Shown: positions 2,567-45,380, numbered from the stretch's first letter. The stretch is DNA of 64,000 nucleotides from a virus (IMGVR_UViG_3300032007_000060:1-64000), one strand, 5' to 3'. Numbers and translations: made by a program. Notes: generated by a model from the sequence alone, not told the origin.

Positions 2567-3217
2567 TTAATCTATTTTTTGTATTTTCCATAGGTCATTG
2601 TTTGTATCAAGTTTGCTTTGGTATAGGTCCATGTTGTCATTGCATTTGGTGGAGTGTGCTGCACATGCATTGATAGCATTGACCACTTTAAATTTTGGTA
2701 ATATTTTACGACAATTTTCTTCATGAGCTGTTAGAATCATATGTGATGTGTGCAGGCTTCCGTATGCTATATCCCTTGCAGTTCCACTTGCAAAATAATC
2801 ACTTGTTATTTCAATAATACCTAAATTAAATTCAACAGTATACATTTTGTCCTGATACACTATTAGCAATTCCCATTCGACCCCATCAATCCCGTTATAG
2901 TCTTGAATAAAATTATATTGTCTAAGATAAGTGTTTAATGATGGAATTAATTCCTTGTATAAATATTCAAAGAATGTGTTTTTATTATTCATCACTGGTG
3001 CTTGGAATGTTTTAAGTAGTTCAAATAGACTATATACTCCGCTAAATGCTATTAAGAATTCACTAATAATAATGGGTTTATCATATTCACTTATTTTGAA
3101 TTTTTTTATCAGTATTTTTGATGAATTTTCATCCAATACCATATCTTCAGATGTAACTCTTTTATCTGCACCTACAGTTATTCCGTTTTCATCTTTAACT
3201 GCAACTATAATTGTCAT
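2567..3217 (-). CDS. Ntn-hydrolase, proteasome beta/HslV-like peptidase
   Basis: MTIIVAV..GITVGADKRVT (N-terminal Thr nucleophile, ADxR motif) and FASGTARDIAYGSL. Confidence 0.8.
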   Translation of the reverse strand: MTIIVAVKDENGITVGADKRVTSEDMVLDENSSKILIKKFKISEYDKPIIISEFLIAFSGVYSLFELLKTFQAPVMNNKNTFFEYLYKELIPSLNTYLRQYNFIQDYNGIDGVEWELLIVYQDKMYTVEFNLGIIEITSDYFASGTARDIAYGSLHTSHMILTAHEENCRKILPKFKVVNAINACAAHSTKCNDNMDLYQSKLDTNNDLWKIQKID

Positions 3218-3234
3218 AAAATTCACCATTTAAT

Positions 3235-3528
3235 TTATTTTAGGTTTAATTGTGACCTTATCCTATTGTTTAACATGTTTTTGAGTTCTATTGCTAATTG
3301 TTTGCAATCTTTTTCATTGAATATTTCATTTGGGTATATGTGTATGAATGGAGCATCAAGACATTCCAATTCTTGTACTGGACCATCATTATCTGTTATA
3401 TCAACACATATATCATTGTAAAGGTCATTTATTAGTTTTTCACCATCTATTTTTAAAGTTACACTTTCATTGGTTATTTTTTTAACATCTATGTATTTTT
3501 TTATCTTTGCGGAATCTAAATACACCAT
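3235..3528 (-). CDS. Hypothetical protein
   Basis: ORF track and operon context. Confidence 0.55.
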   Translation of the reverse strand: MVYLDSAKIKKYIDVKKITNESVTLKIDGEKLINDLYNDICVDITDNDGPVQELECLDAPFIHIYPNEIFNEKDCKQLAIELKNMLNNRIRSQLNLK

Positions 3529-8179: not shown

Positions 8180-9850
8180 TTATTCATCAAACATTAATAG
8201 ATACATTAAGTTCTGATATAACTTTAAATCTTCAACAGGGTTTTGTATAACATAATTACCATGTCCTAACACATGTTCGTGACCCATTAAGTTCTCTAAA
8301 CGAAAATAATCCATATGTGGGGCAACGATTGTAGCAAAAGCATCTCGAAAACCATGAAAATGAATCTTATTAACTTTAGAATTATATGCATAATCATATC
8401 CCAATTCTTCACGGATTTCAATCAACATTCTTTCAGCTGTAGTATACCTTAATTTTTTACCAGTTTTACTAACAAATAATGGAGAATTATTAGTTAACTT
8501 TTTATCATGATTTAATAAAGATAAAACAATCCATCGGACCGCTTGAGGACTAAAAAAAGTATAATGTGATTTTTTAGTTTTCATGGTGATATTATGAACT
8601 ACTGCAACAAGAGTATTATCATGTATTCGTGGTTGTAAATCATCTAAAAGTTTGTTGATTTCTGTTTCATTGCTGAAGTATTTCATTGATTTTATAAAGT
8701 CTTTGCAATCCATTTTTAATAAATCATTAATTCTTAATCCAGAACTAAAAAGACATAATATTACTGGTTTAAAATTAATTGGAGATTCATAAAATACTCT
8801 TTCAACATCATGAACAGTTATAACATCTTCTAAAGATTTTTTCAAACGATGTTCTTTCTCACGAGCAATTCGAGGATTTACAGGTATGAAAAATGATTTA
8901 TAAAAAGTTTTTACTTTTGCAAGTATCCCTGAACGTGTTGTACCTACCAATCCTTCTTCGATAAGATACATTTGAAATGTTGTTAAATATTTATAGACAG
9001 ATCCGTCATCAGGAAAAACTTTATTCTCATAATCATCTTTTGCTTCCTGTAAAATTTCACTTAAAGATTTACCAACAAATTGTGTGAATTTATTTAATGA
9101 ATAAATGTATTGATTAATTGTATTTTGATTAGTAACTTTGTTTCGTATCATTAATTCTTGAAATAATGAGTCTTCATATCTTAATTTTTGCCTTGATGTT
9201 AATTGTCTGTTTAAATCTCTTTTTGATAATTCTTCACAATATTCTTTATAAATTTCATCTTTTCTTATAGGTATTTCATATTTAAGGCAACCCTGATAAT
9301 AAGCATGAGCTGCCTGATATTCATCATCAAAAATTCCAAGATAATATTCTTCACCGTTTTTCTTAATGCAGGATTGCCATTTTACTTGTTTACCATTTTT
9401 TGTTTGAATATTTTTAATACTTACTCCAGGAAATCTGCTTGCTCCCCAATTATATTTTTGCATTAATTCACTTTTAGTTAGTCTTTCAAGATTATCAAGA
9501 CTAAAATTAATAATATTTCCATCAACAGGGGATATTACTTCATTTGACCCTCTATGGAAGAAATAAGTGATTTGTCTATGGCGACCATCTATTCTACGAG
9601 TTGTGTAAATCTCATGTCTTTTTTTATGAATATCAACATTCCATTTATAGGATTCAACAATGTTTCGATTACCTTTGCAATAAATAAATTTGATTTCTCT
9701 TCCTGATTTTAAAACACGTTTATAAATTAATTTTGTGCAGGAATCACAATTTTTACAAAGCAACATTTCTCTAAAAAATAGTAAAAGTATGAGAGTTGAC
9801 CTGAGATAGATCAACTCTAAATGATTCGAGTGTACCATCTTGTGGTACAC
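8180..9850 (-). CDS. Tyrosine recombinase fused to an N-terminal degenerate HNH plus AP2 domain
   Basis: C-terminus: [25 protein letters not shown]-terminus: [13 protein letters not shown] and [28 protein letters not shown]. The start may be MLLCKNC. Confidence 0.85.
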
Positions 9851-11211: not shown

Positions 11212-11247
11212 AAAAAAAATAAAAAAAGATTAGTTAAAAACTAATCT
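11212..11247 (-). terminator. Hairpin plus T-tract closing the Cas operon
   Basis: 8-bp stem AGATTAGT/ACTAATCT followed on the minus strand by a long T run. Confidence 0.65.
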
Positions 11248-12050
11248 TTACCTTTACTATCCATAGTATCACCTCCCTTTAATTTATCAATCCTAGTCCA
11301 CCATTTTTCACCCACATAAGACTGTTCATTAGCTTCATCAGATAAAATAATTTTATCAAAAAAATATGATCCACCAACATCAAGATTATTCTCATTAAAC
11401 AAACTAGTAAAACGAGCATTCTCATAACCATAAATCTTTGCATATTCATCATAATGACTAATGTAATACAAATCATTTGTAATAATATAACTCCAAATAT
11501 CATCAACAGTCAAATGTCTAATTGGAAATGCCACTCTTCTTTGACCTTCAATTCTAATCAAAGGCCCTTTCACACGATGTTTACGAGTAATAGATTCGGA
11601 ACCACGTATACCTAATAATTCTAAATCACAATCCTTTTTTTTCATGAAATCAAATAGCATTGGAAAATAATCCCCAATCAAATATTTTTCACCATTCCAA
11701 AAAGGAGTATTAACAACAGTTAAATCCATTGCTCCAGCTATTTCCGCACTTCTCATTAATTCATTATGAGTTTTTTGAGTACGATACTGCTGCTTACAAT
11801 ACTTCCCATAACCAGGATGAAAATTAAAAATAGGAATAGTATTATCCTGCTGCATAACCATATGCAACAAAACAAGACTATCTTTCCCTCCAGAATATTC
11901 AATTACAGGATTATATTTTGAATTAATGATCTCAGAAACATTCTCTTTAGCTAATTTAATATTATCATTATACGATTTATGTTTACTATGCATTTCATAT
12001 GTTCTGCGAGTTCTACGAGGCATATTATTATCAGGATGCAAAATTATCAC
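11241..12050 (-). CDS. cysH: CysH/PAPS-reductase-like PP-loop protein (type IV-B accessory)
   Basis: EYSGGKDSLVLLHM, LGIRGSESITRKHR, FPIRHLTVDDIWSYI. Confidence 0.88.
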   Translation of the reverse strand: MIILHPDNNMPRRTRRTYEMHSKHKSYNDNIKLAKENVSEIINSKYNPVIEYSGGKDSLVLLHMVMQQDNTIPIFNFHPGYGKYCKQQYRTQKTHNELMRSAEIAGAMDLTVVNTPFWNGEKYLIGDYFPMLFDFMKKKDCDLELLGIRGSESITRKHRVKGPLIRIEGQRRVAFPIRHLTVDDIWSYIITNDLYYISHYDEYAKIYGYENARFTSLFNENNLDVGGSYFFDKIILSDEANEQSYVGEKWWTRIDKLKGGDTMDSKGKD

Positions 12051-12745
12051 CTTACATTATTCAAGAAACCCATACCAGTACTGTTCTTTTCACCCAAACC
12101 AGATTCATAAATGAATTCATAAAATTTACGATTATCTTTAGTAATATTGCAAGTTAAATTACTCCATAAACTACCTATAAGTAGAAATTTATGATTATAT
12201 CTTTCAAAATTCATAGCAACTTCACGTTTGAAACTAAATGAATCAAATAATGGTTCTTCAAGGTAATATTCATCATCATAAAAAGCATTATATTTTTTTA
12301 ATGCATTTTCTTTCAATCGATTGAAAAACCAATTATAATTGATATCATCATTTTTAAAACTATAACAATGATTATTCATTGTTTGATTATGAAATAAAAT
12401 AATAGGTGTACTTGTTTTAAAATAATTAAATTTTTTAGGAATATTAATTAATTTAGAATTTATTAAAACATACTTTTCATCACCTAATCTTAGATTATCA
12501 ATTGTTTTCAATTTATAATATATTGTTTTAATTAATTTAGGATTAGGAGAGCTTACTATTAAGTTATACTCATTATTGCTCATGAAAACATTACTAAAAC
12601 AAAAGAATTTAAACCCTTTTGTATCATGCAAATAATGAAAACGTGAGTCTTTTAATAAAGAATAAATAAACCCTTGGATTTCAAATTTACCAATTTTAAA
12701 AGGATTTAAATTTTTACTATTGTGGAATTTTAATAATAATCTCAT
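12047..12745 (-). CDS. cas6: Cas6 crRNA-processing endoribonuclease
   Basis: QGFIYSLL..LHDTKGFKFFCFS, TSTPII, C-terminal G-rich loop SGLGEKNSTGMGF. Confidence 0.9.
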   Translation of the reverse strand: MRLLLKFHNSKNLNPFKIGKFEIQGFIYSLLKDSRFHYLHDTKGFKFFCFSNVFMSNNEYNLIVSSPNPKLIKTIYYKLKTIDNLRLGDEKYVLINSKLINIPKKFNYFKTSTPIILFHNQTMNNHCYSFKNDDINYNWFFNRLKENALKKYNAFYDDEYYLEEPLFDSFSFKREVAMNFERYNHKFLLIGSLWSNLTCNITKDNRKFYEFIYESGLGEKNSTGMGFLNNVR

Positions 12746-12751
12746 AAAAAA

Positions 12752-13480
12752 TCACAATTTAATCTGATTTTCTGGAACAATACACATACAAACATTATTT
12801 TTATCCCAATATGGTGGTTTGTATGGTTGCTTTTGGAATATCATACCTTCAAATACTGGAACATCCATTGTTGCAGGGATAGGCCTCATTATGTGATTTT
12901 CTTTGAAGAAACTATAATCTTCATTTGTTTCAGTAATAGTGATGTTTCTAATACGGCCACTACCAATACTTGTTTTCTTACCAATACTTGTTAAATGGGA
13001 TAATAATCTTTCTAATTCTTTCTTATCTCCGTTACAGTAAAAAGTAATTGTATCAGTTATAAGTATTGGCAGATTTATCATGAAATCTTTGAAATGACCT
13101 TGATTTGTTTTTATCCTACCTTTTTGTTGCCTATGAGTTAATTTATGAGTTTCTTTGTCAGTAAATCGTTTGTAAATAGTATCACGATATAATTTTACAT
13201 TATCTGCGTATATTCCTACACTTGAATGATAAACATCACTTGTTCTTTTCAAAGGCAGATCCAACAATGAAACATCTATAGTTTCCTCAGTGGGCATGCA
13301 GTAAAACAAATCACCTACTGCATCACGTAAACATAAATAACTTAATATACTATCTAAATGCAGCCAAGGACTTGCAATATAAATTGGAGGGATTACATCC
13401 ATTACAATTTGTAATGGAGTATAATCATCCCCAGTTTCATAATCCAATATTCTTTGAAGGATTTGTTTTTTTATTTCCAT
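12752..13480 (-). CDS. csf3: Csf3 (Cas5 family), type IV
   Basis: LHLDSILSY, LPLKR, QGHFK..INLP, FYCNGDKKELERLL..LTSIGKKTSIGSGRI. Confidence 0.85.
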   Translation of the reverse strand: MEIKKQILQRILDYETGDDYTPLQIVMDVIPPIYIASPWLHLDSILSYLCLRDAVGDLFYCMPTEETIDVSLLDLPLKRTSDVYHSSVGIYADNVKLYRDTIYKRFTDKETHKLTHRQQKGRIKTNQGHFKDFMINLPILITDTITFYCNGDKKELERLLSHLTSIGKKTSIGSGRIRNITITETNEDYSFFKENHIMRPIPATMDVPVFEGMIFQKQPYKPPYWDKNNVCMCIVPENQIKL

Positions 13481-14319
13481 ATTTTCACTAACTCATCAAG
13501 CAAATTACACATTTCTTCCTTGCGTTCATGAATATAATCAAGATAAGCAGTATCAGTTAACTCCTCAACACCCGGATAATCTAATTTAACTTTACCATAT
13601 CCAGTACCAGATTTTCCCCCAAGATAAGGTCTTTCCTCCCATAAACTAATCATTCTACGGAAGCAAGCCTTTTCAATACTATTACAGTCTTCTAAAATAA
13701 ACTCATGAGTAAATTTGGTACCTCTAATCAATGTTTCAAATTCATATTTCATCTGATGTGCCTGTTCATCATCATCACTCTTACCTTCTTTCAGATCATC
13801 TAACCTTGTTCCAAAATCACTACCTTTAAGATTATATGCACTAAAATCATAATCACTATATTCTTCAATGTAATGTTTTGTTTCAGCACATACAATATCT
13901 CCCATTCCGACTTTTAGTTTTCCTTGAATCATCTGATTTCCTAAAGCAGAACCAACAAGACTGATTGGTGGGATTAATTCACGGATTTGTTTTTTTAGAG
14001 TTAAGTTAATAGCGCCTTTATCTTTACTATCCAATGCTTCAAGAATTCCTCCAGTAAATAAAAAATGATAAACCTTTTTTGAGTCTAATTCATAATCCAA
14101 TAATGTTAAATAATCATCCATAACCAATCTACGAAGATATCCTCTTATAGCATTACCATGTATTGCAGGAATGTTATCTATTTCCTCATTATTAGTTAAA
14201 GGATTAATAATTACTGTTGGTAAAGTTAAAATTAATTTTGTAGTTCCATAATCTTCGCTACCTCCATGATGTATTGGAGATAAAGCAGTTAAATTTCCTT
14301 TAAATCTTAAAGTTTCCAT
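13471..14319 (-). CDS. csf2: Csf2 (Cas7 family) backbone, type IV
   Basis: TALSPIHHG, PAIHGNAIRGYLRR, FLFTGG, PPISLVGSA, GKLKVG, LGGKSGTGYGKV. Confidence 0.93.
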   Translation of the reverse strand: METLRFKGNLTALSPIHHGGSEDYGTTKLILTLPTVIINPLTNNEEIDNIPAIHGNAIRGYLRRLVMDDYLTLLDYELDSKKVYHFLFTGGILEALDSKDKGAINLTLKKQIRELIPPISLVGSALGNQMIQGKLKVGMGDIVCAETKHYIEEYSDYDFSAYNLKGSDFGTRLDDLKEGKSDDDEQAHQMKYEFETLIRGTKFTHEFILEDCNSIEKACFRRMISLWEERPYLGGKSGTGYGKVKLDYPGVEELTDTAYLDYIHERKEEMCNLLDELVKIWK

Positions 14320-14336
14320 TTTAAATACGCTCCATA

Positions 14337-14756
14337 TTACATTAATGTTTTTTGACCTGTTTTAGCTAATTTTTCTTGTTTTTTAATTTCATCTACTGTT
14401 TCTAATGCAAAATTTGCAAGATATGTTGATTCTTTACGAAGTAACATCATAGTAATATTAAGATGATCTTCTAAAAATTGAACAATTTCTGTTTCAATAT
14501 TTACAAATTCAACATTTAATTTCTTTGTGAACACATCTAAAAATTCTTTGAAGTTTCTAGCATTACTACTTGCACGTATTCTATCAACAAAGAATTTATG
14601 TGCAGATTTTACACCCATCTTCCGCCATGGAATTCTCATATAACATTTAGCTAAACAATAAGCTAATTTATTTTCAACTTCCATTTCTAATTGTTCTTGT
14701 TCAGAATATTCTTCTTTCAATTTTATCAATCCTCCAAATATAATGCTAAATCCCAT
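14337..14756 (-). CDS. cas11: Cas11-like small subunit (type IV-B)
   Basis: Small all-helical protein between csf1 and csf2, the canonical IV-B position. Confidence 0.7.
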   Translation of the reverse strand: MGFSIIFGGLIKLKEEYSEQEQLEMEVENKLAYCLAKCYMRIPWRKMGVKSAHKFFVDRIRASSNARNFKEFLDVFTKKLNVEFVNIETEIVQFLEDHLNITMMLLRKESTYLANFALETVDEIKKQEKLAKTGQKTLM

Positions 14757-15370
14757 ATTGGATTATTTGCATTATTTTTTATAGATTTTACATAATTTCT
14801 GGCAATATGTTTATTGAATGTTGAAGTTAATTTACGATAATGGTGCATTTCTAATTGACCAGTTTCTAAAACAGTTTTAGGGATTTTTAAATCTCTTAAT
14901 TGTTTTATAAACTTCATTATTTCAGTTAATGTATTTAAATTAACTCTCACAATATCATAATCAATTAAAAAGTTAATTTCACCTTTATTGTTTTCATTAT
15001 ACACTTCATTCATTCTTATCCAACCAATTTTTTGCCAAGTTTTAGTTAGATAAATATAAAATGGTTTGTTCGGTAAATTCAATACAATATCTTTTGCTTC
15101 TTTCTTTTTGAATTTAATTAATTCATCTTCTGTTAAAAGGAACATTGTTCTACGATATTCATTACTATTTTTGACAAGGTAATTACATTCAGGGCAAATT
15201 ACTTCCCCATGACTTATATAATCTGCACATGTAAAATTTCCACTAAATTTCTTCTTAAAACCAGTTGTTGTATGTTTTTGACATATACAACAATCCCCTT
15301 CTAATTCTCCAAGGTCAGGAGTAATTTCTAATGTTTTACATAACATTTCACTGAAATTCATTTTCATCAC
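14726..15370 (-). CDS. csf1: Csf1 (Cas8-like, Zn finger) large subunit
   Basis: CCICQ...FTCADY..ICPEC; PNKPFYIYLT..QK; first gene of the effector operon. Confidence 0.78.
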   Translation of the reverse strand: MMKMNFSEMLCKTLEITPDLGELEGDCCICQKHTTTGFKKKFSGNFTCADYISHGEVICPECNYLVKNSNEYRRTMFLLTEDELIKFKKKEAKDIVLNLPNKPFYIYLTKTWQKIGWIRMNEVYNENNKGEINFLIDYDIVRVNLNTLTEIMKFIKQLRDLKIPKTVLETGQLEMHHYRKLTSTFNKHIARNYVKSIKNNANNPIWDLALYLED

Positions 15371-15392
15371 ATTTTTATGAATAAATTATTCA

Positions 15393-15477
15393 CGGAAGGT
15401 GAGGGATTTGAACCCTCGAGTGTTTTACCACACAGGATTAGCAGTCCTGCTCTCTAACCAGACTAAGACAACCCTCC
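15393..15477 (-). tRNA. tRNA-Ser(GCT)
   Basis: Acceptor GGAGGGT/ACCTTCC, anticodon arm CAGGA-CTGCTAA-TCCTG, long variable arm, T arm GAGGGTTCAAATCCCTC, G73; CCA not encoded. Confidence 0.93.
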
Positions 15478-15490
15478 AGTTGAAATTAAA

Positions 15491-15567
15491 AGGTTGGTAA
15501 GGGATTTGAACCCTTGTTTTGAGGCTTACAAGACCCCCGCCTTAAACCCAGACTAGACTAACCAACC
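15491..15567 (-). tRNA. tRNA-Thr(TGT)
   Basis: Acceptor GGTTGGT/ACCAACC, anticodon arm GGGGT-CTTGTAA-GCCTC, T arm AAGGGTTCAAATCCCTT, U73. Confidence 0.85.
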
Positions 15568-15583
15568 ATAAAAAATATAAAAA

Positions 15584-16021
15584 TTAGGATAATGTTTTAA
15601 CCATTTTAACATTATCCAAATTAATAGATTTCTCAGTAACAAAAACTTTTTTCTTTTTAAATTCCTCTTCATTAATAATTAAAATATAATTATCATCAAT
15701 CGTACACATATCATCTTTTTTAACTGTATAACTTGAATCATCCAAGAATATGAATTCAGTATCACATTTACCATGATTTACGTTTAAAATTTCAAAAGCA
15801 GGATGTTCTTTAAATTGGATTAAATTAAACAATTGCTTATTTAATTCAGATAAACATTCCACATAATGTTCATATTTGTCCAATACTTCTCTTACATAGT
15901 CATCTTGTTTATTTTGTTCTAATTCAGAGATTATTTTTTCATAATCTTCAATTTTATTCTGAATTACTCTATGAACTTCTTTTATATCCATTTTAGAATC
16001 CTCCATTATAATTTTTTCCAA
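15584..16021 (-). CDS. Hypothetical protein (N-terminal coiled coil)
   Basis: ORF track. Confidence 0.6.
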   Translation of the reverse strand: MEKIIMEDSKMDIKEVHRVIQNKIEDYEKIISELEQNKQDDYVREVLDKYEHYVECLSELNKQLFNLIQFKEHPAFEILNVNHGKCDTEFIFLDDSSYTVKKDDMCTIDDNYILIINEEEFKKKKVFVTEKSINLDNVKMVKTLS

Positions 16022-16662
16022 ATTAAACCCTTTTCTTCAACCTTTCGTTGTAACTCATTAATATCTTTACTTGCAATACTGACTCGTTTACCATCTTCAT
16101 TATAATACTGATATCTCCACAGAAAACCTTGTTCAACCTTTTTTGATTTCTGTTTATTGACCCTGAAGTAACCAGAACTATTTCTATCTAAAGACATTTC
16201 CATTTTCTTTTCTAAGGAATGACGTCGCCCATACATTGGATTATTTTCACCAGAGCAATCATAATGATTTTTAGACATTAATCTTTTACTATTAACTGTA
16301 CGTTTTTGTCCTTTATTGGCTTTAGATATTTTTTTTCTAGTTTCTTCTGAAACTAGGTGCCCTTTTCTCATTTTACTAAAATTTTTTTTAGTTTCATCAG
16401 AATGTTTCATTCCTATATGATGCAATGTTGAATGTTCTCCTCGAGACATTAATATTAAATTATCAATATCATTATTGAGTTTATTCCCATCTTTATGATG
16501 GATAATACTGTCTTCTGGAATCTCAATATTATGATGATCTTCAAAAATCAATCTATGTAGCATTTTTCCATGGTTACCTTCTTTTTTTGAAGAAATCCTG
16601 TAATATCCTGAATTACATATTTTTGCATTTCCGAATTTAGTTTTCAGAACACCAACGGTCAT
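16006..16662 (-). CDS. HNH endonuclease with NUMOD3 repeats
   Basis: MLHRLIF..IIHHKDGNKLNNDIDNLILM..EHSTLH; HSDETKKNFS, VSEETRKKIS, NPMYGRRHS. Confidence 0.88.
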   Translation of the reverse strand: MTVGVLKTKFGNAKICNSGYYRISSKKEGNHGKMLHRLIFEDHHNIEIPEDSIIHHKDGNKLNNDIDNLILMSRGEHSTLHHIGMKHSDETKKNFSKMRKGHLVSEETRKKISKANKGQKRTVNSKRLMSKNHYDCSGENNPMYGRRHSLEKKMEMSLDRNSSGYFRVNKQKSKKVEQGFLWRYQYYNEDGKRVSIASKDINELQRKVEEKGLIWKKL

Positions 16663-35391: not shown

Positions 35392-35404
35392 CCTAAAAAA
35401 AATT

Positions 35405-35885
35405 TCATTGCCAGTTCATTGCCAAAAAAATTTGGCAATAAGAATCTCTCTTTAAATTGTTTAGTTTTGCAAAATAAGCCCAATGAAACCTTGTTTAAAA
35501 ATTGGTAATTTTTCATTGCCAAAATGAATTTTTCATTGCCAAAATAAAACCAAGACTTCACAAGACATTACAAGCCAAACCAAACATTCACAAAGCTTAT
35601 TCAAATTTTGATTGCCACATTGCCAAAAACATGTACATGAAATAAAAGAAGTTAATTCAAATTCATTAGCTTCCAAAATTCAATGACATTTTGGCAATGA
35701 AAAAAATATCAAAAATTGAATAAACTCATATCACTCCCCTTTCACAAAATAAACCATTTTCCATGCTTTTCTTTATTGCCATTTTTAATTGGCAATGAAA
35801 AACAGGTTTTGGCAATTTGGCAATGAAACAAAAAAACCATGAAAACAATACTAAAATTCATCATAAACCCCTCGTTTATTGCCAC
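35405..35885. repeat. Iteron-like cluster: 13 copies of ATTGCC/GGCAAT (consensus TTCATTGCCAAAA) in both orientations; putative replication origin
   Basis: Copies at 35407, 35418, 35434, 35515, 35535, 35611, 35619, 35693, 35775, 35791, 35811, 35819, 35878; immediately downstream of the helicase gene. Confidence 0.75.
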
Positions 35886-45012: not shown

Positions 45013-45093
45013 TTTTAATCACCACTAATATACTATTCTGATGAAGATATTATATTAAATTTATTCATAAAAAAACGTTAAAAAAAAGGGGTA

Positions 45094-45356
45094 GTTTAAC
45101 CAGGAAAATAGGGCATTAAAATAATTTTTTATTCTTTTATTTTTAAATTAAATGGAGAGAATATTCTATTTTTTTCTGTATATTTATTCATGTGATTTTT
45201 GAGTGAAACTATAATAAAAAACACAGATTTACAGTTCTCTCTGAGTATAAAGAAGAGCTTTATTAAGAAAAAAAAATATTTTATTTCCTCCATTTAGATA
45301 AAAAAATAAAGAATTTTATTATTTTTTTTCATAACATCTTCTTTTCCTGGTTAAAC
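45094..45356 (-). ncRNA. Candidate 263-nt rod-shaped ncRNA
   Basis: Perfect 15-bp terminal IR GTTTAACCAGGAAAA, nested IRs, promoter motif 25 nt upstream and a T-tract downstream. Confidence 0.5.
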
Positions 45357-45380
45357 ATTAATTTTATTATTTCTTTTACT

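Follow-up and report, generated by a model that had tools for sequence, protein, structure and literature searches.

What would a Cas6 be doing in a type IV-B locus? Loci of this CRISPR-Cas subtype consist of csf1, csf2 and csf3, cas11, and a cysH-like gene whose product has no catalytic C-terminal cysteine; they typically have no DinG, no adaptation genes, no CRISPR array, and no enzyme of the Cas6 or Csf5 kind to process CRISPR RNA (crRNA). The question is raised by a cassette on the minus strand of a 64,000-nucleotide stretch of viral DNA, here called the window, with which an 82,228-bp metagenomic virus record begins (IMGVR_UViG_3300032007_000060; G000). In this cassette, csf3 and cysH are separated by an intact cas6. 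We conclude from sequence comparison that array-less viral IV-B modules have recruited a Cas6 of their host family at least twice, and that the enzyme in the window is catalytically intact and under purifying selection. More tentatively, we propose that its substrate may be the precursor crRNA (pre-crRNA) of the host itself.

By gene content, the locus is a type IV-B effector cassette, with csf1, cas11, csf2, csf3 and a cysH-like gene (Table 1), and neither DinG nor adaptation genes nor an array accompanies them. The cysH-like protein has the SGGKDS PP-loop and, on reading of its sequence, no C-terminal catalytic cysteine motif, in line with what is described for IV-B cysH-like genes (PMC8175902). 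The six genes from csf1 to cysH overlap by 31 nucleotides (nt; csf1/cas11), 10 nt (csf2/csf3) and 4 nt (cas6/cysH) or are separated by gaps of 6-17 nt, cas6 starting 6 nt past csf3. They therefore form one operon, as had been read in an earlier note made from the sequence alone, and all six lie on the minus strand where that note placed them. Profile searches for Csf1, Csf2, Csf3, Cas6 and CysH with PADLOC, Pfam and TIGR01877 gave the matches expected from that reading. The NCBIfam type IV equivalog models also match csf1, csf2 and csf3, all under their cut-offs (csf1 against TIGR03114, 7e-05; csf3 against TIGR03116, 8.9e-24), implying that these are divergent members of their families. The one departure from the subtype is the intact Cas6, and we therefore file the locus as a IV-B variant and not as a plain member. 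Two other assignments were rejected. Type IV-A systems have DinG, Csf5 or Cas6 and an array and lack cas11 and cysH, whereas here DinG and the array are absent and cas11 and cysH are present. Nor is the viral locus a type I-B system: its cas6 stands in a csf operon, with no cas8b-cas7-cas5-cas3-cas4-cas1-cas2 genes or array.

We then asked whether the viral Cas6 looks like a working enzyme. It belongs to the archaeal type I-B (Cas6b) family, scoring 93.3 bits against TIGR01877 (cut-off 58.65) and 53.1 against PF01881 (cut-off 23), and PADLOC matches it to Cas6b at 1.3e-74 as against 1.3e-09 for typeIV_Cas6. Residues Y28, H40 and K46 align to Y31, H46 and K52, the catalytic triad of P. furiosus Cas6 (PMC3652601). 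Y28 and H40 do not vary among 16 sequences from viruses and hosts, nor do the C-terminal glycine-rich loop and the basic KxNAxKKYN helix, and K46 is nearly invariant; the loop, GLGEKNSTGMG, is intact in the viral protein. The top Foldseek matches of an AlphaFold model (predicted local distance difference test, pLDDT, 75.6) are all Cas6 (5yi6, 3i4h and 3pkm; E ~1e-11, template-modelling score ~0.6), and in this predicted structure the protein has the double ferredoxin-like (RNA recognition motif) fold of Cas6. When cas6 is compared with a 94%-identical copy, the ratio of nonsynonymous to synonymous substitution rates (dN/dS) is 0.06, and for its counterpart in L006, a related viral locus, it is 0.19; these values are similar to the 0.06-0.11 of csf2, csf3 and cysH. 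A catalytically dead Cas6 would have refuted the reading of the earlier note; instead, triad and loop are intact and the gene is under purifying selection. Because of this, it is fair to expect a defined RNA substrate, which is also what the earlier note had argued.

The same observations bear on the possibility that we are looking at decay, the cassette or its Cas6 being a relic that no longer functions. The joint absence of an array, adaptation genes and a nuclease could be taken as a sign of such decay. However, all six reading frames are open, dN/dS is low throughout, no other DNA is as well conserved as the cassette between two otherwise divergent viruses (see below), and at least 24 clusters of viral-type Cas6-A (the family named below), at 56-94% identity, are found in metagenomes. 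We find decay barely credible.

The origin of the enzyme is indicated by its closest cellular homologs, which are found in Methanobrevibacter, Methanosphaera, Methanothermobacter and Methanobacterium. In the hosts, homologs at 45-52% full-length identity stand at the start of operons of the order cas6-cas8b-cas7-cas5-cas3-cas4-cas1-cas2, which have arrays, as in Methanosphaera and Methanobrevibacter. These Methanobacteriaceae I-B enzymes share with the viral protein the triad, the glycine-rich loop and the KxNAxKKYN helix, whereas the viral copies have a common 5-residue deletion just past the FSN motif and stand in a csf operon without an array. In the tree, the viral copies of this family, which we call Cas6-A, form one clade beside, and not inside, the cellular archaeal I-B clade. 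This implies that the capture is old. The Cas6-A family is present in 23 of 314 host-family genomes.

We take the host family to be Methanobacteriaceae because both these nearest Cas6 homologs and a provirus with a related Csf2 are found there. A search of 314 Methanobacteriaceae species genomes gave 5 with a Csf2 homolog (63-76% identity). One of these loci (L078) lies ~175 kb into a 191-kb contig, with an integrase directly after csf3, and so is an integrated provirus. Among the products of G000 itself are a baseplate J protein, fibre proteins with Ig domains and tyrosine recombinases, which identify it as a temperate tailed virus; its coding is almost wholly on one strand and its G+C content is ~31%. 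We conclude that the carrier is a temperate tailed virus of gut and rumen methanogens. Among GenBank phage records, there was no close relative of either its Csf2 (only a 25% match, in an actinophage) or its Cas6.

How widespread is Cas6 among related cassettes? Relatives with a Csf2 of this clade were found in 11 viral contigs, several metagenomic contigs and 5 host genomes. Cas6-A occurs in the order csf3-cas6-cysH in the window, in L067 and in L006 (on the viral genome G001), whose csf2 product is 89% identical to that of the window, and in the order csf3-cysH-cas6 in L068. L004 (on the viral genome G002), L005 and L081 have, after cysH, a Cas6 of a different and very distant family, Cas6-B. 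No Cas6 is present in L003, L078, L079 and L008-L010, nor in L001, L002 and L077, which have IbrA-like PAPS (3'-phosphoadenosine-5'-phosphosulfate)-reductase/DUF3440, GNAT and ParB-like genes between csf3 and cysH. In a Csf2 tree that comprised relatives of this clade only, the Cas6-B loci are sister to Cas6-less loci with full support, implying that even close relatives have acquired or lost Cas6. By genome search, Cas6-B has counterparts in 81 of the 314 host-family genomes (38-46% identity), and the matches of a homolog search with Cas6-B were all metagenomic proteins. Since the Cas6 of the window is of the host type I-B family, rather than a type IV Cas6 or Csf5, and is patchy among sister loci, it was gained and not kept, contrary to the earlier note's description of an operon that "keeps" Cas6. 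On these sequence relationships, a Cas6 of the host family has entered the array-less viral IV-B module on at least two occasions, from the unrelated families A and B.

That some sister IV-B loci do without Cas6, and that its position varies (csf3-cas6-cysH or csf3-cysH-cas6), might also be expected if it were a lone decoy, which binds or mis-processes host pre-crRNA or titrates host Cascade subunits and simply rides in the IV-B operon, supplying nothing to the Csf complex; the deletion past the FSN motif could be read in the same way. But the location of cas6 within the operon, 6 nt past csf3 and overlapping cysH, implies co-expression with its neighbours, and in all viral contexts examined Cas6 is found only beside csf and cysH genes. 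Moreover, the catalytic triad is kept, which a pure binder would not need, and both of the independent recruitments were into IV-B operons. A lone decoy is, in our view, quite unlikely.

The cassette as a whole has its own history of movement. Of the 82-87 kb of G000 and G001, only ~9 kb can be aligned between the two, and the block that contains the cassette is both the largest and the most similar DNA that they have in common. Its ends coincide with the borders of the operon, and it is inverted with respect to the shared gene beside it. A block that is the largest and most similar between two otherwise dissimilar viruses implies that the cassette moves as a unit. In G000, in L067 and in the provirus L078 it adjoins the integrase; the integrase end is typical accessory-gene territory, and the cassette is a mobile accessory module of temperate tailed viruses. 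An HNH/NUMOD3 homing endonuclease is encoded at 16006-16662, just upstream of the cassette, and HNH-like fragments adjoin csf1 at L077:9723-10370; co-conversion by a homing endonuclease could be a route by which the cassette is transferred between viruses.

Several relatives have peculiarities of their own. L001 (11609-13971), L002 and L077 (G189:C72) each have two PAPS-reductase-fold genes, an IbrA-like PAPS reductase with DUF3440 in addition to the cysH-like gene, and the slot between csf3 and the cysH-like gene also holds a GNAT acetyltransferase and a ParB-N protein. L009, a distant IV-B relative without Cas6 (41% Csf2 identity), has a run of ~36-nt units at 2800-3444, ~1 kb upstream of csf1, as do the near-identical loci L008 and L010. 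Each unit consists of TTCGAGGCA, ~9-10 variable bases, TGTTMYCC and a variable tail, with periods of 36 and 72 in Tandem Repeats Finder (TRF); the run is neither CRISPR-like in spacing nor coding-like, and it could represent iterons or a source of short RNA for an array-less IV-B system. Finally, L082 (G050:C20:2301-5131) and a second locus on G050:C5 each have a very distant Csf2-like gene (~30%) followed by a Cas6-B-like gene, in a genome that also carries a IV-B provirus. These two loci may be another type IV-like variant.

Does the virus itself supply an RNA for its Cas6? No CRISPR array, mini-array or solitary repeat was found in the 82,228 bases by TRF, direct-repeat search, k-mer chaining or a mismatch-tolerant pair scan, and Rfam models, including the CRISPR-DR models, matched only two tRNAs in the record. 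Cas1, Cas2, Cas4 and the DinG DEAD_2 domain were also not found in the 82-kb record, in searches whose positive controls matched. The absence of a repeat-spacer array, cas1, cas2 and dinG, which the earlier note had claimed for the 64-kb window, thus extends to the whole record. Pfam gave no match among the neighbours of the operon, RecD not having been searched for specifically. The host I-B repeat linked to Cas6-A is GTTTAAAATAGACTT[A/T]ATAGTATGGAAA[C/T] (family given as GTTTAAAATAGACTTWATAGTATGGAAAY). Its best match in G000 is 20/29, equal to that in shuffled sequence, as against 24-29/29 at host loci, and it was not found in the complete relatives G001 and G002 either. All nine repeat families from archaeal loci with a related Cas6, the Methanosphaera/Methanobrevibacter I-B repeat among them, scored no better than shuffles in G000, G001 and G002 or in any of the flanks. 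The B-type repeat, which is linked to Cas6-B (GTTAAAATCAGACTATTTTAGGATTGAA...), was likewise at background in all of these, the Cas6-B viruses included. An RNA anti-CRISPR in the form of a solitary repeat unit, and a viral mini-array, were both rejected, as no host-like repeat copy stands above background.

A cognate array might of course have gone unseen, either in the ~20% of the genome that is missing by the CheckV estimate or on a different replicon within the same host. The record carries a completeness rating of 79% and the label "linear", and a IV-B archaeal virus with a two-repeat mini-array has been published (PMC10848311). Yet G001, which has the same Cas6, and G002, which has Cas6-B, are both rated 100% complete, and a mismatch-tolerant de novo scan found no array or mini-array in either. 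In addition, the first 126 bases of G000 (1-126) recur at 82086-82211, beginning 143 bases from the end and stopping 17 bases short of it. This suggests a terminal repeat or an imperfectly assembled overlap, and that the contig is nearly closed and more complete than the 79% estimate. We therefore regard an unseen array as decidedly improbable.

A different source in cis would be a virus-encoded non-CRISPR RNA, namely the precursor of the two tRNAs that precede the operon or an element at 45.1 kb, which Cas6 would trim before the Csf complex is built on it. A gap of 22 nt separates the end of the tRNA-Ser from csf1, on the same strand, and the tRNAs are probably co-transcribed with csf1; the tRNA-Thr is the first gene past the stop of the upstream open reading frame, with a TATA-like AT-rich stretch just 5' of it. 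The 45.1-kb element (45090-45360, minus strand) has a predicted rod-like fold of -56.9 kcal/mol (z -5.1 against shuffles) and looks like a real structured RNA element, and IV-B complexes can load non-CRISPR RNA (PMC7937560). However, in G001 the same cassette, at 79.5% identity, is preceded by an ordinary promoter region with no tRNAs before csf1, and the 45.1-kb element has no homolog in that genome. Nor did de novo scans of G000 against G001 find any common conserved intergenic segment, short noncoding motif or dispersed repeat: TTTTGGCAATGAAAA, the sole dispersed repeat in G000 (~35.5-35.8 kb), is not in G001. We consider a viral non-CRISPR substrate unlikely. We also discounted a role for CysH in modifying the neighbouring tRNAs, since their linkage to the cassette is not conserved. 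Among homologous loci, then, Cas6 of one family or the other recurs in some relatives and the tRNA linkage is specific to the window. Of the substrates that the earlier note had offered, host crRNA fits the data best, while the tRNA precursor and the 45.1-kb hairpin are not conserved with the cassette. Because there is no array or repeat in cis, and because the viral RNA candidates are not conserved, the substrate of Cas6 is probably supplied in trans.

Once sources in cis are eliminated, it is the enzyme's ancestry that points towards host pre-crRNA as that substrate. The starting point is a Cas6 that is intact, selected and host-derived, with no repeat in cis; every step beyond it is one that we infer. 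The viral Cas6 would recognize host pre-crRNA of the repeat family given above and cut it in trans; the products would assemble into nuclease-free Csf1-Cas11-Csf2-Csf3 complexes; and the CysH-like PP-loop enzyme would be the output of the complex. Two consequences can be envisaged, between which the present data do not distinguish. Host guides might be diverted from Cascade and Cas3, an anti-CRISPR effect by sequestration that would protect the virus or prophage, or the spacer memory of the host might be reused against rival mobile elements. We put forward cleavage of host pre-crRNA by the viral Cas6, feeding the Csf complex, as a serious possibility that we would not yet call probable. The broader proposal is to be taken more guardedly still: IV-B modules with a host-type Cas6 may be crRNA-hijacking devices that disarm I-B systems or retarget their spacers, and that evolved at least twice, with two host Cas6 families. 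The probability left over from host pre-crRNA and the four rival explanations goes to other mechanisms.

Host arrays and spacers are relevant to this proposal. Arrays of the A-type repeat family, that linked to Cas6-A, occur in ~35 of the 314 host-family genomes. An initial set of 117 host spacers gave no meaningful match; in a sample of 545 unique host spacers, one matches G002 (27/29 aligned bases, E 2.7e-6), implying that I-B arrays of this family target this virus group. Spacer 76 of L083, in the G031 array, resembles csf3 at L080:2040-2071 (28/32, E 0.003) and at L079:4552-4577 (24/26), matches that are not significant after multiple testing. They recall a published case in which viral IV-B cas7 is reportedly targeted by the host. 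In several Methanobacteriaceae genomes, single perfect copies of the I-B repeat also occur outside arrays, for example at G016:C44:19470-19497, G040:C119:2988-3015 and G109:C62:53232-53259; these lone host repeats may be solitary repeat units carried by mobile elements, or what is left of arrays.

A number of observations weigh against host pre-crRNA as the substrate. No cellular Cas6 is more than 52% identical to the viral Cas6-A, which stands beside the cellular clade, so that its repeat specificity may have drifted. A matching I-B system or its repeats are present in only 7-11% of host-family species (Cas6 in 23/314, arrays in ~35/314), and only one of the five genomes with related IV-B proviruses has an A-type array. 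None of the 545 sampled spacers matches G000 itself, and the G000 record is only ~79% complete. The existence of close sister loci without Cas6 implies that the enzyme is optional for IV-B. The sole IV-B complex to have been purified assembled on heterogeneous non-CRISPR RNA (PMC7937560), and IV-B is negatively correlated with I-B, a sponge having been judged unlikely (PMC7038947).

How does the locus compare with systems already described? IV-B loci with Cas6 have been recorded as rare exceptions, with "only 12 instances" (Pinilla-Redondo et al., PMC7038947). Those 12 have the same architecture, with Cas6 and no array, and were listed without analysis; a crRNA sponge was also discussed there, and the earlier note's view of an undescribed system consequently has to be given up. 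What is new relative to those loci is that the Cas6 is of the host I-B family, recruited twice, intact and selected, and that the cassette moves between viruses. The Csf complex of Mycobacterium sp. JS623 (PMC7937560, PMC8175902) is the same in having csf1-cas11-csf2-csf3 with a cysH-like gene on a mobile element, and in the absence of an array, adaptation genes, helicase or nuclease. The window differs from it in having a Cas6 in the operon and two upstream tRNAs, and in its setting, which is a tailed archaeal virus here and an actinobacterial plasmid there. Moreover, whereas the JS623 complex bound heterogeneous RNA, the processing enzyme of the window implies a defined RNA. In archaeal viruses, IV-B is known from the Fuxiviridae of Bathyarchaeia (PMC10848311) and from a Methanoperedens virus (bioRxiv 10.1101/2023.08.02.551345), in both of which a virus-borne csf1-cas11-csf2-csf3-cysH set has been proposed to act in counter-defence. 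The Fuxivirus has a two-repeat mini-array, Cas6 being unmentioned in PMC10848311, and the Methanoperedens virus has neither array nor Cas6. The lineage of the window is distinguished from both by the presence of Cas6, the absence of an array and a Methanobacteriaceae host.

Type III systems share the Cas6 and the arrays of type I systems. CRISPR-associated transposons (CASTs) bind host crRNAs via Cas6 (PMC11656645). By analogy, the window too may encode an effector that has no sufficient array of its own and draws host guides through recognition of repeats by Cas6. The output would differ from that of CASTs: it would be a CysH-like enzyme, with no transposase or nuclease.

The coordinates of the cassette and of the features around it are collected in Table 1.

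Table 1. The type IV-B cassette and adjoining features, in positions of the window (aa, amino acids)
Feature	Position	Strand	Product length and supporting matches
csf1 (type IV large subunit, Cas8-like)	14726-15370	-	214 aa; PADLOC Csf1_0_IV 2.8e-32, nearly full length
cas11 (type IV small subunit)	14337-14756	-	139 aa; PADLOC Cas11_0_IV 1.1e-24
csf2 (Cas7 backbone subunit)	13471-14319	-	282 aa; PADLOC Csf2_0_IV 1.3e-65; Pfam RAMPs above cut-off
csf3 (Cas5)	12752-13480	-	242 aa; PADLOC Csf3_0_IV 3.6e-58
cas6, archaeal type I-B (Cas6b) family	12047-12745	-	232 aa; TIGR01877, PF01881, PADLOC Cas6b
cysH-like (CasCysH)	11241-12050	-	269 aa; PF01507 2.1e-11, 44.6 bits against cut-off 22.5
tRNA-Ser (anticodon GCT)	15392-15478	-	ARAGORN; Rfam 56.8 bits
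tRNA-Thr (anticodon TGT)	15491-15563	-	ARAGORN; Rfam RF00005 56.3 bits
Mobile unit	11242-15355		4.1-kb block, 79.5% identity to G001 (blastn, G000 against G001)
Tyrosine integrase	8180-9850	-	PF00589 1.4e-13; 1.4 kb past cysH

Elsewhere in the window, TTTTGGCAATGAAAA is repeated in both orientations at 35404-35832, forming an iteron-like cluster upstream of a 582-aa gene without a known family. The cluster may be a replication origin.

Because the sole purified IV-B complex bound random RNA, the subtype has offered no experimental handle. An intact Cas6 of known ancestry, recruited twice, supplies a concrete candidate for the cargo of IV-B, namely host I-B repeat RNA, and sister loci with and without Cas6 provide natural controls, so that the question of IV-B function becomes testable. 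The viruses of gut and rumen methanogens, which have been little studied, join the carriers of CRISPR-derived modules for counter-defence or competition. Overall, an array-less IV-B cassette with a host-type Cas6 suggests, short of proof, that this subtype may work on the host's own CRISPR RNAs.

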